Positions 16,020 through 48,862 of a stretch of 64,000 nucleotides of DNA are shown one piece after another. Positions within the stretch are counted from its first letter, which is position 1, and the number at the start of each line of letters is the position of its first letter. The position numbers and the translations under genes were made by a program. The notes beneath the pieces were generated by a model that did no database searches, was not told where the DNA came from, and saw only the letters and a list, made by a program, of their open reading frames with translations. Source of the stretch: Planctomycetota bacterium (GTDB lineage: Bacteria > Planctomycetota > Phycisphaerae > SM23-33); the NCBI GenBank assembly GCA_016235825.1, contig JACRIL010000152.1, forward strand, positions 53,414 to 117,413, given 5' to 3'.

Positions 16020-16092
16020 TGGAGACACGGGGGATCGAACCCCGAACCTCTAGCTTGCAAAGCTAGCGCTCTCCCAATTGAGCTATGTCCCC
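16020..16092 (-). tRNA. tRNA-Ala (anticodon UGC)
   Basis: Reverse complement GGGGACATAGCTCAATTGGGAGAGCGCTAGCTTTGCAAGCTAGAGGTTCGGGGTTCGATCCCCCGTGTCTCCA: cloverleaf with G3:U70 Ala identity pair, anticodon loop TT-TGC-AA, TTCGATC T-loop. No encoded CCA. Confidence 0.85.
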
Positions 16093-16132
16093 TCTCGTGC
16101 ACGCAACCTTAAAAGTTGTTCCGCCGGCAAAA

Positions 16133-16206
16133 TGGGCCTGGACCGATTCGAACGGTCGACCTTGCCCTTATCAGGGGCACGCTCTAACCAACTGAGCTAC
16201 AAGCCC
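16133..16206 (-). tRNA. tRNA-Ile (anticodon GAU)
   Basis: Reverse complement GGGCTTGTAGCTCAGTTGGTTAGAGCGTGCCCCTGATAAGGGCAAGGTCGACCGTTCGAATCGGTCCAGGCCCA: near-identical to canonical bacterial tRNA-Ile(GAT); anticodon loop CT-GAT-AA. Confidence 0.85.
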
Positions 16207-45584: not shown

Positions 45585-45944
45585 ATGCCAAAGAAACAGA
45601 TTCACATCCGCGACGTGCCGGAGTCGCTCTACGAGTGGATTGAGAGCGAGCGCCACGCCAAGCGGGTGTCGCAAAAGGAATTCCTGTTGAAGGTAATCGG
45701 GAATGCCGCCGCACATTCCACGGCAGACACGGGAGCGTCGGGGCCGTCGGCTTTCAGCCGAATGACCATGGTTTACTGGAAGAGCAAGAAGTTCTGGCTG
45801 GGCAAGTTGCTCGAACATCCGGAAATCATGACGCAAGGCCGAACGCTGGAGGAATTGGAGCGGAACATCCGCGAAGCGTATATGCTGATGGCGTTTGACG
45901 AGGTGCCCGAAAAGTACCAAATCCGCGAAGTGGTCATGACATGA
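45585..45944 (+). CDS. HicB-like antitoxin with N-terminal ribbon-helix-helix segment
   Basis: N-terminal KQIHIRDVPESLYEWIESERHAKRVSQKEFLLKVI (RHH-like beta-strand + helices); C-terminal MVYWKSKKFWLGKLLEHPEIMTQGRTLEELERNIREAYMLMAF resembles HicB UPF0150 fold; stop overlaps hicA start (ATGA). Confidence 0.5.
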   Translation: MPKKQIHIRDVPESLYEWIESERHAKRVSQKEFLLKVIGNAAAHSTADTGASGPSAFSRMTMVYWKSKKFWLGKLLEHPEIMTQGRTLEELERNIREAYMLMAFDEVPEKYQIREVVMT

Positions 45945-46123
45945 AACGGCGAGAGTTGCTTCGCAGATTGCGGCAGGAGGGATGCGTCTTTCTCCGCGCC
46001 GGCGGCAAACACGACATCTACGTGAATCCAAAGACGGGGAAGAAGCAGCCGGTTCTCCGGCATAGCGAGATCGACGAACATTTGGCCAGGCACATCTTGC
46101 GATACCTGGGACTGGAGCAATAG
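45941..46123 (+). CDS. hicA: HicA mRNA-interferase toxin
   Basis: 60 aa; LLRRLRQEGCVFLRAGGKHDIYVNPKTGKKQPVLRHSEI...ILRYLGL matches HicA consensus including the GxH catalytic motif (GGKH). Confidence 0.65.
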   Translation: MKRRELLRRLRQEGCVFLRAGGKHDIYVNPKTGKKQPVLRHSEIDEHLARHILRYLGLEQ

Positions 46124-46400
46124 CAAAATGCCGTTTGTTTTCCCGGAAGCGAATGGCTTTGGGATGATCGCAAATGCTTTATTGTAACGTTTCAGGATGA
46201 AACACTTGAAGTTGTATGCAAGGAAGTCGTCTTTCTGGGCCGTTATTCTACCGACAGCGTCAAGAAAGCCCTCAAACAGTGTATGCTGGAGAAGTGAACA
46301 TAACCGTTTTCCACAGGCAACGAGTCGCATGACTTTCTTGTTCAGGCCCCTTCTGTCACGGGCCTTTGGGCGGCTGGTTTTGACGGATTAAACAGAGAAT

Positions 46401-46478
46401 TTTATTTCGCCCCTTCAGGGCTTGACTGTTATGGCGGCCGATTTCCTGGGGCGTTGCCCCAGGCTTTCATATTGCGCC
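46401..46478. repeat. Left arm of ~78-nt imperfect inverted repeat (MITE-like / structured RNA element)
   Basis: tttatttcgccccttcagggctt...cctggggcgttgccccagg...ttcatattgcgc; ~75-80% identical to reverse complement of 46681-46758; contains internal perfect hairpin cctggggc-gtt-gccccagg (46446-46464). Confidence 0.5.
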
Positions 46479-46680
46479 CCGTTGGGGCTTCACGATTTTC
46501 TCGTCATTTATAAAGTTGGCGATTCAAAGTATGATGAGCCGGTCGATGGGTTATTTTTTAAAGCCCCGCATGTAAATGCGGAGATGTTGTTGTCTTTGTA
46601 GTTAAAAAAAGAAAATTTTCCCCTGCTCGCGCAGGAGGCTTCAGGAATGGTTCGCCGATGGATGTTACGCCCTGAGAAGG

Positions 46681-46758
46681 GCAAAATATGACAGCCCAGG
46701 GCAACGCCCTGGGAATCGGCGAAAATAAGATCGTAAAGCCCTGAAGAGGCGAAATAAG
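46681..46758. repeat. Right arm of the inverted repeat pair
   Basis: Reverse complement cttatttcgcctcttcagggctt...cccagggcgttgccctggg...gtcatattttgc; internal hairpin cccagggc-aac-gccctggg (46695-46713) differs from the left-arm hairpin by two compensatory base-pair changes. Confidence 0.5.
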
Positions 46759-46828
46759 GCGGTCGGATTTGGCTATCAGACGGGTAAAATGACCTTTGTA
46801 GCGTTGCAGGACTAACGGGAAAATATTT

Positions 46829-48862
46829 ATGGCGTGGTTGGGCGAATATTACAGGCAGCGCGGCGGCGGGGCGGCGTCATCCATCAGCAGGTGGCGGACG
46901 ACGGCGGATATCGGCGTTATCCTGCTGCTGATCGTCGCGATGGCCGCCATCGCGGACCACGCGCCCAGCACGACCTACGCATTCGCCCAGCTCAACAACA
47001 TCGGCAGCGCGATGGCAATGGAGCAGAACGGCAACTGGCTGTCGCCGGTGAACCAGGTGGGCAATGTGCCCCGCAAGGGGCCGCTGACGTTCTGGGCGCT
47101 GGGCGGGCTGCTGAAGCTGACGGACGCCCGCGACGACCTGATTTTTCGCCTGCCGAATATTCTGTGCTCATTGGCGACGGCGGTGCTGATCTATCTGCTG
47201 GCCGGGCGATGGTACAACAGGCGGGCGGCGCTGCTTTCGGCGTGCCTGTGGGTCGTCATGCTGCATATGAGCAAGCAGATCAACGTCGCACTTACCGACA
47301 TGATGCTGACAATGTGGCTGACGGGGGCGATCTTCTGCCTGGACCGGCTGGTGTTCCATCGCGCCGGGGGCAGCCGGGCGTGGTGGTGGGTCGCCGGCTT
47401 CTGGGCGTGCATGACTTTGAGCGGCATCACGAAAGGCTGGGGGCTGGTCAGTCTGGCGCTGGTGTTTTTCTTCATGATACTTGCGGCGGGACTGGGTGGC
47501 GGGTTCAAACCGCTGCGGCTGGCGATGCCGTGGTTCGACAGGCCGATACTGGCCGGGCGGATAATTATCCGGCGGGCGTGGCGGGCGTTCTTATGCACGC
47601 GACCGGCCTGGGGTCTGCCGGTTTTTGTCGCGGTTATCGGCACGGTTCTGGGCGCGATGATCTGGAACGGCGGGCAGGAATTCGTCCGCGACGCGCTGGG
47701 CGTGGAGATCGGCCAGCGGATAACCGGCGAAGGCGAGACGGCCCCGGTCCGCGGTTGGACCCTGCCGCCGCTGCAACTGATCTATTTCACGCTGCCGGCG
47801 TCGTATCTGGCGCTGATCGCGTTTTGCTTTGTCAGGCCGGGCCTGTGGCTGGGCCGCAAGGGGCCGCTGTGCCTGCCGATTTTCTGGATTATCGCGGTGG
47901 TCGTGCCGTATTCGATTCCGCACGGGTTCCGGCCGGATTATCTGCTGCCGTGCTACGCGGCGGTGGCGATCATGGGCGGATGGGCGGTTGATCGGCTGGC
48001 AGAACTGGCCCGGCTGACCAATCGCGGCCGGCTGGGGGGGCGGGCCGGACGGACGGTGATCTTCGCCCGGCACGCGATGGCGGCAGTGCCGGTGCTGATT
48101 GGTGCGGCGATCTTCGTGCTGGCCAGCGCATACTTTTTCCGCGAACTGCTGCCGGCCGCATGGCAGCTCGACAAGCTTCTGCCGATGCCGTTTTTAATCG
48201 GCCCCGAGACCTGGCCGATGCTCTGGGCGTGCATGACGCTGGGCGTCTGCACGATTGCGGCCGGCGTCTGGGCGAGCCTGACCTGGCGGATAAGGACGGT
48301 CGGGGCGGCTGCGATTTACGGCATGCTGTGCGCGGCGTTCCTGGCGACGCACTTCATCAATCCCGAGGCACGCACCGGCGACGGCGAAAAGATGCGGACA
48401 CTGGCGATGGACGTCCGGCCGATCGTCGGGGCCGACCGATATTACGTCCACAAGTGCGAGAAGCTTTCGGTCGAACTGTATTTCGGGCAGTTTGGCCAAA
48501 AGCTTCTGCCCGGCGGCGTCGGCGATCCGTCGATAAAGTACGATCCTTGTGATTCCGGTCGTGATTTCACGCTAACTATCGGCGATCCGGCGATCCGCTG
48601 GCTGATGACGTGCGACCGCGGTCTGGTCGAGATGGGCGCAGCCGTCGAAAAACCTGGAGGAGACTTCACGCTCAAACTCGGCAATGCGAGAAAAACCTTT
48701 GACACTTGGCCCGATATACTGGGCCAAGTCGTCCGGTCAAGCCCATCCGTAGTCTCGCAAGGCTGGGGCAGGATATATCTGATCCGTCTCCATACCCGCC
48801 CGATCCGCCTGTGGTCCAAACCATTCGACACCGGCTTCATACCCGGCGCACCGGGCGAATAA
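46829..48862 (+). CDS. ArnT/PMT-family (GT39/GT83-like) membrane glycosyltransferase
   Basis: 677 aa; ~11 N-terminal TM helices with PLTFWALGGLLKL and LPNILCSLATAVLIYLLAGRW pattern typical of dolichyl/undecaprenyl-phosphate-sugar-dependent glycosyltransferases; large C-terminal periplasmic domain. Confidence 0.65.
   Translation: MAWLGEYYRQRGGGAASSISRWRTTADIGVILLLIVAMAAIADHAPSTTYAFAQLNNIGSAMAMEQNGNWLSPVNQVGNVPRKGPLTFWALGGLLKLTDARDDLIFRLPNILCSLATAVLIYLLAGRWYNRRAALLSACLWVVMLHMSKQINVALTDMMLTMWLTGAIFCLDRLVFHRAGGSRAWWWVAGFWACMTLSGITKGWGLVSLALVFFFMILAAGLGGGFKPLRLAMPWFDRPILAGRIIIRRAWRAFLCTRPAWGLPVFVAVIGTVLGAMIWNGGQEFVRDALGVEIGQRITGEGETAPVRGWTLPPLQLIYFTLPASYLALIAFCFVRPGLWLGRKGPLCLPIFWIIAVVVPYSIPHGFRPDYLLPCYAAVAIMGGWAVDRLAELARLTNRGRLGGRAGRTVIFARHAMAAVPVLIGAAIFVLASAYFFRELLPAAWQLDKLLPMPFLIGPETWPMLWACMTLGVCTIAAGVWASLTWRIRTVGAAAIYGMLCAAFLATHFINPEARTGDGEKMRTLAMDVRPIVGADRYYVHKCEKLSVELYFGQFGQKLLPGGVGDPSIKYDPCDSGRDFTLTIGDPAIRWLMTCDRGLVEMGAAVEKPGGDFTLKLGNARKTFDTWPDILGQVVRSSPSVVSQGWGRIYLIRLHTRPIRLWSKPFDTGFIPGAPGE

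Follow-up and report, generated by a model that had tools for sequence, protein, structure and literature searches.

The nearest catalogued relative of the repeat described here is Acido-Lenti-1, an RNA motif reported without any gene association by Weinberg et al. 2010 (PMC2864571). It has been filed in Rfam since 2010 as RF01687, an sRNA of unknown function, and its original alignment holds about 60 copies in L. araneosa. Among DNA-level systems, the closest are the REPtrons of Enterobacteria and Pseudomonas, which comprise REP/BIME (REPIN) repeats and RAYT/TnpA-REP (Nunvar 2010; Bertels & Rainey 2011; Ton-Hoang 2012, PMC3333891). In the classification of TnpA-Y1 proteins by Quentin et al. 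2018 (PMC6006769), subclass 1.2 carries a Y---Q--HH signature, is described as lacking terminal structures, and has no cognate repeat assigned, while class 3 is characterized by Y----Q, a profile of ~155 aa, a CnGA foot, and "atypical secondary structures."

The locus studied here lies in the window, the whole 64,000-nucleotide stretch of DNA that was analysed, and comprises two inverted arms (A and B) around an AT-rich core. The large hairpin (L), the linker GGCU..UAU..CG, and the following small hairpin (S2) of both arms fit positions 1 to 46 of the Acido-Lenti-1 model, and the units are multicopy, clustered, and present on both strands, as in the original alignment. They differ from the catalogued motif in being about twice as long, with an extra small hairpin (S1) and a spacer, in a taxonomic range far beyond Acidobacteria and Lentisphaerae, in arm B scoring under the Rfam gathering score, and in evidence that points to a REP-like DNA repeat linked with a Y1 enzyme rather than to an sRNA of unknown function. 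The likeness to REPtrons lies in short extragenic hairpin repeats with inverted doublets dominant, in a Y1 HUH gene bracketed by inverted copies and sometimes by alternating clusters (in related loci, not in the window), and in a Y1 gene that keeps its syntenic place in two related genomes, with a divergence close to that of the PFK gene beside it. In contrast to REPtrons, the unit is a composite of three hairpins rather than one, its foot is TRTNNC rather than GTAG, and the Y1 protein carries a class-1-type Y---Q rather than that of the class 2 TnpA-REP of Quentin et al., the predicted enzyme having no sequence match to E. coli TnpA-REP.

The flanked proteins resemble subclass 1.2 in that they combine the Y---Q--HH signature and the HuH motif (DHVH) with a core that is short and a C-terminal extension that is conserved, but here each of the genes examined has hairpin units at its ends (save the downstream end at locus L124) and the family includes many further phyla and more than 8000 protein clusters. 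Class 3 offers a parallel in its occurrence in Planctomycetes and Acidobacteria, its several atypical flanking hairpins, and its multicopy repeats; the flanked Y1 proteins do not belong to it because of their Y---Q--HH motif. The IS200/IS605 elements (and gene-less PATEs), with subterminal hairpins recognised as single-stranded DNA and insertion without target duplication, include the closest solved structure, IS608 TnpA. However, in these elements tnpA lies between two unlike hairpins, LE and RE, that share one orientation, whereas the ends of the Y1 cassettes described here are one unit in inverted orientation and the element in the window is without tnpA.

The inverted pair between hicA and a glycosyltransferase gene

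A sequence-only reading had described an inverted repeat at this place, and a repeat search (segments 46443-46479/46679-46715, 81%, and 46402-46426/46733-46757, 92%) and a MAFFT alignment both recovered it. The location was right, while the arms proved somewhat longer (46396-46492 and 46665-46763, against 46401-46478 and 46681-46758 as proposed). The mean column identity between arm A and the reverse complement of arm B is 85% over 94 columns; ~75 to 80% had been suggested. This similarity exceeds chance: in dinucleotide shuffles, 0.07 occurrences of the 19-mer arm pattern and 0.00 of the 22-mer would be expected. The features of the locus are as follows.

45585-45944, plus strand: hicB, upstream neighbour outside the repeat (ORF)
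45941-46123, plus strand: hicA, upstream neighbour (ORF; MBI5724669.1, HicA family toxin at NCBI)
46396-46492, plus strand: arm A, a complete three-hairpin unit, S1-spacer-L-linker-S2 (covariance model R1, 83.4 bits, model positions 1-98)
46409-46421, plus strand: arm A S1, GCCC-CTTCA-GGGC, with the foot TTATTTC 5′ of it (sequence; single-stranded DNA centroid fold)
46445-46463, plus strand: arm A L, CCTGGGGC-GTT-GCCCCAGG, then CT (sequence; fold)
46476-46488, plus strand: arm A S2, GCCCC-GTT-GGGGC, with TATTGC 5′ and T 3′ (sequence; fold)
46493-46664, no strand: core, 172 bp of AT-rich non-coding DNA, 43% GC against 59% in the whole window
46665-46763, minus strand: arm B, a second complete three-hairpin unit, inverted (covariance model R1, 80.8 bits, positions 1-98)
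46669-46682, minus strand: arm B S2, GCCCT-TCTC-AGGGC (sequence; fold)
46695-46713, minus strand: arm B L, CCCAGGGC-GTT-GCCCTGGG, identical to the family consensus (sequence; alignment)
46738-46750, minus strand: arm B S1, GCCT-CTTCA-GGGC, containing a single G.T pair as read on the minus strand (sequence; fold)
46829-48862, plus strand: PMT_2-family glycosyltransferase gene, downstream neighbour outside the repeat (ORF)

The 8-bp hairpins quoted earlier (46445-46463, plus; 46713-46695, minus) are indeed perfect, and the two stem positions at which they differ are compensated on the partner strand, as had been claimed; each arm holds three hairpins, however, rather than one. The TG/CA stem variant of the arm A L also occurs at L034, L047, L059, L107, L112, and L115. 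The covariance-model search that had been suggested as a check found both arms. Arm A matched RF01687 at 46445-46489 with 38.7 bits, above the gathering score of 37 (E 3.1e-5 for the 64-kb window), and arm B matched it at 46713-46668 with 28.3 bits, under the gathering score yet over the full model length; its homology is secured by the 80.8 bits from model R1, the family scores of the two arms corresponding to E values of about 1e-15. Both arms align to RF01687 positions 1-46 with all pairs standard, and both have its 8-bp hairpin, linker, and 5-bp hairpin. The S1 of arm A gives a half-motif match of its own to model positions 23-45 (19.1 bits). Folding of each arm yields the predicted hairpins (z-scores -2.0 to -3.0), and a single strand of the entire element (both arms and core, 368 bp) gives one long hairpin (z-score -7.8).

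The core is AT-rich as described and contains the hairpin quoted earlier, CCGCATGTAAATGCGG, at 46566-46581. Consensus scans flagged this plus-strand hairpin and a minus-strand one at 46637-46620 as small and terminator-like, together with one promoter-like site (46507-46535, plus); the counts from these scans are close to the shuffle expectation. A blastn comparison of the core with 125 other loci and the rest of the window returned only weak matches of 18 to 19 nt (E > 0.1). A conserved cargo or decayed gene in the core was considered and discarded, as both the blastn search against the loci and a tblastn search with Y1 proteins came back empty. Two small ORFs, 46422-46601 (plus) and 46508-46684 (minus), overlap the repeat arms.

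The genomic setting agrees with the earlier description: the pair sits in a 705-bp intergenic gap between two same-strand genes, hicA and the glycosyltransferase gene. In the 64-kb window only these two units were found, and tblastn with Y1 proteins detected no Y1 gene in it. They are solo units arranged tail to tail (convergent) around 172 bp of unique AT-rich DNA, and because of this convergent polarity the pair is not a deletion derivative of a Y1 cassette. A junction of two doublets was also rejected, since a covariance-model search with filters off and E up to 10 revealed no decayed outer partners. No relative of the glycosyltransferase gene suitable for an empty-site comparison was present among the metagenome contigs searched; the sole carrier of the same protein was a 2.4-kb Logan contig that breaks inside arm B.

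A cross-phylum family of three-hairpin units

A pattern scan showed that the unit recurs in many phyla, with at least 119 genome stretches carrying it, including stretches from Planctomycetota, Verrucomicrobiota, Lentisphaerota, Kiritimatiellae, Acidobacteriota, Desulfobacterota, Chlamydiota, Bacteroidota, Nitrospirota, and Thiomargarita. Among the matches listed, several metagenome-assembled genomes had two to three unit-bearing contigs each. Unit midpoints fell inside ORFs of at least 200 aa in 35 of 208 cases (17%), compared with 76% of random positions. The unit forms a cross-phylum, extragenic, multicopy family.

The conserved unit spans ~97 nt and consists of a small S1, an almost invariant large L, and a small S2. 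The Rfam model is shorter, and the unit, at roughly twice its length, adds the 5′ hairpin S1 and the spacer. This three-hairpin architecture is visible in the locus flanks and in our alignment A2, and it can also be recognised in the L. araneosa copies of the alignment from which Acido-Lenti-1 was first described. The S1 foot reads T (80%)-R-T (71%)-N-N-C (75%), i.e., TRTNNC; no conserved GTAG or CGTC tag was found in the unit consensus, and the family consensus 3′ of L is CT-G/A-NN-TAT, with no U-tract. Regarding unit boundaries, conservation stops at the S2 hairpins in L091. The doublets of L018 gave no boundary and are uninformative in this respect because they sit in a ~500-bp tandem duplication. 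The idea that the S1 and S2 stems are always alike within one unit was abandoned: identical stems were seen in 57 of 125 units, where 44 would be expected, and among the 46 units whose S1 stem differs from GCCC just 4 had them.

The hairpins are under selection for pairing, in agreement with what had been proposed from the two arms alone. Pairing holds in 93.6% of the cells of the family stems, and double-change cells number 180, compared with 40 in shuffles, none of 500 shuffles reaching 180; pairing collapses when stem partners are slid. A wobble strand bias, sought as an RNA signature, was not present, G.T and A.C mismatches numbering 20 against 29.

The arrangement of the units is predominantly inverted. 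Of 88 adjacent pairs, 74 are inverted (64 head to head and 10 convergent) and 14 are tandem, and 29 units are isolated. The head-to-head doublet is therefore the commonest form of the family, and the pair in the window has the minority polarity. Among the neighbouring genes at these loci (at least 119), besides Y1 only generic families recur, namely, sensor kinases, ABC ATPases, and oxidoreductases.

Y1 (HUH) transposase genes between the units

In related loci the head-to-head doublet is opened by about 450 to 500 bp and brackets a gene for a 150-aa Y1 (HUH) protein. At L022, L083, L096, and L100, a PF01797 (Y1_Tnp) gene with E values of 1e-23 to 1e-25 lies exactly between two outward-pointing units, and RF01687 matches at the gathering score adjoin these same genes. 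A second set of loci was picked via Y1 homologues alone and contributed nine further genes, eight of which are flanked at both ends by outward-pointing units (L123, L128, L129, both genes of L130, L131, L133, and L122, the last with a weak upstream copy). At the ninth, L124, the upstream unit is present and the contig ends about 200 nt past the Y1 gene. Around these eight genes, a minus-strand unit ends within about 25 nt 5′ of the start codon, and downstream, a plus-strand unit starts either directly at the stop codon or no more than about 10 nt from it. L121, which encodes a different Y1 protein of 171 aa, served as an internal control and has no such units. Unit clusters of about 10 alternating copies occur at L124 and L131, and two Y1 cassettes lie 2 kb apart at L130. 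Many Y1 cassettes are located inside restriction-modification or defence loci.

In the protein alignment (A3), Y115, Q119, H122, and H123 are invariant (signature YI..Q..HH), the HuH motif is DHVH in three of the four sequences and DYVH in that of L100, and a C-terminal tail, F..EE..FL.K....DE.Y.WD, is conserved. By this signature only, the flanked proteins appear to match subclass 1.2 of Quentin et al. 2018; the family exceeds 8000 protein clusters. A phmmer search against the PDB returned IS608 TnpA as the closest match (E 4e-4) and also ISDra2 TnpA, and did not match E. coli TnpA-REP. In two related genomes, the Y1 gene occupies the same syntenic position and is 94% identical, against 95% for the adjoining PFK, which is the pattern to be expected of a vertically inherited, RAYT-like gene. 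Proteins 75 to 89% identical to the query carry names from several phyla. This cross-phylum identity and the double cassette of L130 are as compatible with an ordinary mobile IS as with a domesticated RAYT.

Candidate explanations and implications

One rival reading takes the arms as RNA, and their Rfam filing agrees with the structured noncoding RNA suggested earlier. If each arm were a transcribed sRNA or cis-regulatory RNA, acting for example on the hicBA or glycosyltransferase mRNA, the arm A score above the RF01687 gathering score, the strong covariation in all three helices, the predicted folding of the arms, and the UTR-like (5′ or 3′) gap between same-strand genes would all be in place. 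Because covariation cannot tell RNA from single-stranded DNA hairpins, the units may still have an RNA function. Their occurrence on both strands, mostly as inverted doublets, gives no preferred transcript orientation, and the equal frequency of G.T and A.C mismatches gives no sign of the wobble tolerance of a one-strand RNA. The neighbouring genes are unrelated from locus to locus, consistent with the missing gene association in Weinberg et al. 2010 (PMC2864571), and the one partner seen repeatedly is a DNA-cutting enzyme of the HUH type, bracketed by units. We therefore regard a dedicated regulatory RNA as unlikely. A terminator pair or insulator between hicBA and the glycosyltransferase gene, with the repeat incidental, could draw on the arm A L followed by CTTTCATATT, flagged as terminator-like in a loose consensus scan, and on the two flagged core hairpins, one per strand; E. 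coli REPs have, in at least part of the literature, been proposed to affect termination and mRNA decay. The consensus tail after L is not U-rich, though, five terminator-like sites against 1.9 ± 1.5 in shuffles is a weak excess, and the S hairpins and the Y1 association would be left unexplained, so that we consider this very unlikely.

The MITE-like character suggested earlier holds insofar as the arms belong to a repeated family related to mobile elements. A classical MITE, i.e., a 368-bp element with terminal inverted repeats of 78 to 97 nt and a core, moved by a DDE transposase, would account for the long inverted arms, small size, AT-rich core, intergenic site, and one-strand long hairpin. 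It is nonetheless highly improbable, because the flanks, ...AGAGAATT and GGCGGTCG..., show no target-site duplication; a direct comparison of the junctions ACAGAGAATT/TTATTTCG and CGAAATAA/GGCGGTCGG, a check that had also been suggested, found no shared direct repeat. In addition, neither the other loci searched nor the rest of the window holds a significant match to the core, the arms are found at other loci as single copies, as tandem copies, or in the opposite polarity, no DDE transposase recurs near the units, and no degenerate partner copies accompany the arms. A phage- or plasmid-derived origin-like or attachment structure is a further reading, the origin-like form of which had been suggested earlier; some replication origins are likewise built of inverted repeats with AT-rich DNA between them. 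The unit distribution largely refutes it: the unit pattern had 2 matches in 2.9 million viral contigs and the Y1 protein matched 2 plasmid records out of 72,556, the surroundings of the pair contain no genes for replication or integrase functions, and the units are scattered over chromosomal contigs of many phyla. Its probability is close to negligible.

The locus is probably a pair of solo REP-like three-hairpin units (Acido-Lenti-1 plus an upstream hairpin) placed tail to tail around ordinary AT-rich intergenic DNA. We read the element as non-coding remains of a REP/transposase-like system, in preference to a classic MITE or a dedicated regulatory RNA, and most likely it is a non-autonomous repeat of the REP-like kind whose hairpins are recognised in single-stranded DNA. 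If IS200/IS605 TnpA and E. coli TnpA-REP are taken as analogues, a Y1 enzyme would bind the hairpins in single-stranded DNA, the small S hairpin with its 5′ foot TRTNNC would be the likely recognition element, and the L hairpin would be a lineage-specific addition. From this analogy we infer Y1 cleavage, mobility, and strand choice: cutting and rejoining beside the hairpins would allow gene-less units to be spread or rearranged in trans. The copies in the window, which code for nothing, would need a Y1 gene elsewhere in the genome or would be relics. The compensatory changes between the two L hairpins would then reflect a family-wide need to fold rather than a function specific to this locus. 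If the region 3′ of hicBA or 5′ of the glycosyltransferase gene is transcribed, the GC-rich hairpins could also act as barriers at RNA 3′ ends, a role that has been proposed for E. coli REPs.

That Acido-Lenti-1 is not an RNA gene but the cognate DNA repeat of the orphan Y1 subclass 1.2, and thus part of a new cross-phylum REPtron-like system with more than 8000 protein clusters, an S + L composite repeat, and a TRTNNC foot, is a proposal that we hold to be about equally likely to be right or wrong. Our literature coverage was incomplete; no paper found within it connects Acido-Lenti-1 with subclass 1.2 and REP-like repeats. The Y1 enzyme and its hairpins might be linked to defence or single-stranded DNA processing rather than being purely selfish.

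For the window itself the outcome is deflationary, as the pair becomes an instance of a catalogued repeat family and not a locus-specific regulator. More broadly, it links two orphans, an Rfam sRNA motif of 2010 and a Y1 subclass of 2018. If the proposal is true, RF01687 matches would be re-annotated as REP-like DNA repeats, and the S1-L-S2 unit would provide a defined substrate for Y1 biochemistry. Systems of the REP-RAYT type, so far mostly of Proteobacteria, would then reach Planctomycetota, Verrucomicrobiota, Acidobacteriota, and further groups, where both the lineage of the enzyme and the design of the repeat differ.

The inverted pair and its membership of Acido-Lenti-1

A repeat search recovered the inverted arms described in the sequence-only reading, at 46402-46479 (+) and 46679-46757 (-), with a mean column identity of 85% when aligned. 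The perfect 8-bp hairpin with a GTT loop reported for each arm is present, with the stem CCTGGGGC/GCCCCAGG in arm A and CCCAGGGC/GCCCTGGG in arm B, the two differences being compensated on the partner strand. An arm-specific 19-mer and 22-mer have 0.07 and 0.00 expected occurrences, respectively, in shuffled sequence. The non-coding setting and the AT-rich core (GC 43% versus 59% for the window) were likewise borne out. The features of the region are as follows.

45585-46123: hicB-hicA, directly upstream of the units
46140-46297 (+): possible gene remnant between hicA and arm A, one frame reading ...WLWDDRKCFIVTFQDETLEVVCKEVVFLGRYSTDSVKKALKQCMLEK* with no in-frame start
~46345-46366: separate hairpin GGCCC-N10-GGGCC, just ahead of arm A
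46396-46492 (+): arm A
46493-46664: core, 172 bp, without significant matches at the other loci compared
46665-46763 (-): arm B
46829: beginning of a PMT_2-family glycosyltransferase gene

At the Rfam gathering threshold the window yielded three matches, two to tRNAs and one to Acido-Lenti-1 (RF01687). The tRNA genes adjoin each other at 16020-16206 (-) (RF00005, 71 and 70 bits) and are unrelated to the repeat. The RF01687 match lies in arm A (46445-46489, 38.7 bits against a cut-off of 37), and a permissive threshold added a full-length match in arm B (28.3 bits) and a half motif, comprising the linker and second hairpin, at 46399-46421. The arms are therefore RF01687 members by Rfam's own criterion, arm A passing it, and the full motif plus the extra half motif indicates that each arm is ordered small hairpin, spacer, large hairpin, linker, small hairpin.

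Acido-Lenti-1 was first described from Acidobacteria and Lentisphaerae and typed as a trans-acting RNA with no associated gene, occasional proximity to group II introns being the sole context remarked (Weinberg et al. 2010, PMC2864571). The coordinates in that original alignment already show a repeat-like habit: Lentisphaera araneosa has about 60 copies, in runs spaced 74, ~110, and ~195 nt with alternating strands. The additional first hairpin is also seen in the flanks of these L. araneosa sequences.

A covarying unit that avoids genes

Scanning the genome collection with the pattern CCYRGGGCNNNGCCCYRGGCTNNNNTAT returned at least 119 genome stretches, and the taxa among the matches listed include Planctomycetota, Verrucomicrobiota, Lentisphaerota, Kiritimatiellae, Acidobacteriota, Desulfobacterota, Chlamydiota, KSB1, Bacteroidota, Nitrospirota, and large sulfur bacteria. 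The flanks of these matches define a conserved unit of ~97 nt, longer than the Rfam motif, with the following parts.

S1 (small hairpin): foot TRTNNC, then GCCC-TTTCA-GGGC, then T
Spacer: 20-25 nt, variable
L (large hairpin): CCCAGGGC-GTT-GCCCTGGG, then CT
Linker: 3' end TAT..C
S2 (small hairpin): GCCCC-TTC-GGGGC, then T

The S1 foot is kept even though it lies outside the search pattern (T 80%, R, T 71%, N, N, C 75%). Across 125 aligned units, 93.6% of cells formed pairs versus 83.8% in shuffles, double-change cells numbered 180 versus 40 (a count reached by 0 of 500 shuffles), and pairing collapsed when partners were slid by one to three columns. The Y/R positions of the L stem that the pattern leaves free are paired in 119 of the 125. 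Folded as single-stranded DNA, either strand of each arm forms the L and S2 hairpins, with S1 in most folds, and mismatch types have no strand preference; both results agree with a palindrome acting at the DNA level and readable from either strand.

An nhmmer search located 210 copies in 120 sources. Adjacent copies form 64 head-to-head (divergent), 10 convergent, and 14 tandem pairs, leaving 29 lone copies. Head-to-head gaps, measured between nhmmer boundaries, range from -69 to 207 nt in 60 pairs and are mostly about -5 to 50 nt; in the closest pairs one S1 hairpin directly adjoins the other. Units are mostly extragenic, with 17% of midpoints inside ORFs of at least 200 aa versus 76% for random positions. 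At one locus (L018 4770-5540), a ~500-bp tandem duplication, 94% identical including the flanks, contains two head-to-head doublets, so local amplification carries units along.

A covariance model of the unit (R1) scored arm A at 83.4 bits and arm B at 80.8 bits, and its search found neither a third copy in the window nor decayed outer partners beside the pair. The window pair has the rarer, convergent arrangement, with the S2 hairpins facing inward across a 172- to 175-nt gap. Most simply, these are two solo copies sharing one intergenic gap, and they could be relics or else mobilisable solely through a hypothetical Y1 gene located elsewhere in the genome. The only other contig with an identical glycosyltransferase (Logan SRR12113407_31927, L001 1-138) ends within arm B, probably because assembly broke at the repeat. 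Ton-Hoang et al. (PMC3333891) report that hicA-hicB has taken the place of tnpA-REP and its BIMEs in some E. coli strains; the hicBA neighbours here may be a coincidence.

Y1 transposase genes bracketed by units

ORF clustering over 119 loci revealed no dominant neighbour and one small cluster directly against units in four loci. These ORFs encode 150-aa proteins that match PF01797 (Y1_Tnp; E 1e-23 to 1e-25) and NCBIfam IS200. In all four, the gene stands between outward-pointing units, <-[S2 L S1] gene [S1 L S2]->, separated by 452-501 nt; the cassette is the usual head-to-head doublet, housing a gene between its two units. Matches to the curated RF01687 model at gathering score also adjoin these genes.

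The link was also tested in the reverse direction, starting from the protein. A profile search with the Y1 protein returned at least 8000 homologous clusters, mostly of 150 aa, and named homologues 75-89% identical to the query come from Gemmataceae, Methylomirabilota, and Verrucomicrobia MAGs. The contigs of seven homologues, picked only on contig size or divergence, were examined, one of them (L121) being from the same genome as an already compared locus (L083). In L123, L128, L129, L130 (both genes), and L131, a minus-strand unit ends within ~25 nt upstream of the start codon and a plus-strand unit begins at the stop codon or within ~10 nt of it. L122 has a strong downstream and a decayed upstream unit, and L124 has the upstream unit on a contig that stops ~200 nt past the gene. 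About 10 alternating units precede the gene in L124 and L131, as in a REPtron (REP/BIME repeats with their RAYT gene). L121 provides an internal control in the form of a different Y1 gene, of 171 aa, that no units accompany.

With two homologues from Bacteroidota megaplasmids, the pattern reaches down to 40-46% protein identity. The Persicobacter homologue has recognisable units on either side (27 and 33 bits). The AT-rich Bernardetia locus (L132 2380-3070, NZ_CP147018.1; 41% identical to the query) has inverted S-type hairpins around the gene with the foot TATTTC/TATTTT, e.g., TATTTC-GCAGCTATGCAGCT, and no L hairpin. From this comparison, the footed S hairpin would be the ancestral element for recognition, and L may be a later, lineage-specific addition.

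The proteins align over DHVH (HuH), a YI..Q..HH motif, and a conserved tail. Quentin et al. (2018, PMC6006769) define TnpA-Y1 subclass 1.2 by the motif Y---Q--HH together with a short core, a C-terminal domain of its own, and a low copy number; the unit-flanked proteins carry this exact signature, by which they are assigned. Their best solved relative is IS608 TnpA (E 4e-4, catalytic Tyr aligned), and a search of solved structures gave no sequence match to E. coli TnpA-REP.

In two related genomes the gene lies between pfk and mfd and is 94% identical, versus 95% for the PFK neighbour; this synteny and similar divergence are consistent with vertical inheritance under purifying selection, as for RAYTs. 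The high cross-phylum identity suggests horizontal movement. Two subclass-1.2 genes 2 kb apart in L130 (3001-3453 and 4983-5435), each with its own unit pair, argue against a strictly single-copy, fully domesticated status.

Cassettes lie within or beside restriction-modification/defence genes in ~6 of ~9 distinct contexts, as a raw tally (L128 1-6453; L129 1657-5423; L130 1-5435; L123 9189-10953; L100 1723-2931). Gene orders include hsdM-KilA-N-hsdS-Y1-hsdR, hsdS-Y1-hsdM, MmeI_Mtase-PDDEXK_3-Eco57I-Y1-Bro-N-Y1, HsdM_N/RhuM-Y1-RhuM, and NgoFVII-like endonuclease-Y1-RecQ; an Eco57I-family gene is upstream in L124, L125, and L131. A group II intron D1-D4 fragment (L100 1-53 (-); RF02001, 36.5 bits) ~3 kb from a cassette echoes the remark of Weinberg et al.

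A proposed mechanism and its relation to known systems

The data show a family of units with covarying hairpins, extragenic and mostly in inverted doublets, that bracket subclass-1.2 genes. By analogy with IS200/IS605 and TnpA-REP biochemistry, the Y1 enzyme would bind the hairpins as single-stranded DNA, cut in single-stranded positions adjoining them (candidates being the TRT foot or the CT after each stem), and rejoin the strands, which would disperse or rearrange gene-less units in trans. Side effects on transcripts, as a 3'-end barrier or weak terminator, are possible, judging only from loose consensus matches and from proposals made for E. coli REPs.

In its workings the system resembles a REP/BIME-RAYT REPtron, but its units lack the GTAG or CGTC tag and its enzyme falls outside the TnpA-REP clade; since both are defining features, it is not filed as canonical REP. 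An IS200/IS605 element is rejected because its ends are different hairpins in direct orientation, as is class 3 of Quentin et al., which is characterized by Y----Q and a CnGA foot. The window element is also rejected as a MITE with TIRs and TSDs. The sequence-only reading, which proposed a MITE-like element or a structured RNA, is thus right in part: its mobile-element relation and its selection on structure stand, the classical MITE falls, and the element is not demonstrably an RNA.

Taken alone, the finding in the window is an ordinary one: two copies of a repeat already catalogued. Our literature search, incomplete in coverage, found no paper that ties Acido-Lenti-1, subclass 1.2, and REP-like repeats together. 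What is added, modestly but genuinely, is a testable link between two orphans, an Rfam motif and a Y1 subclass.
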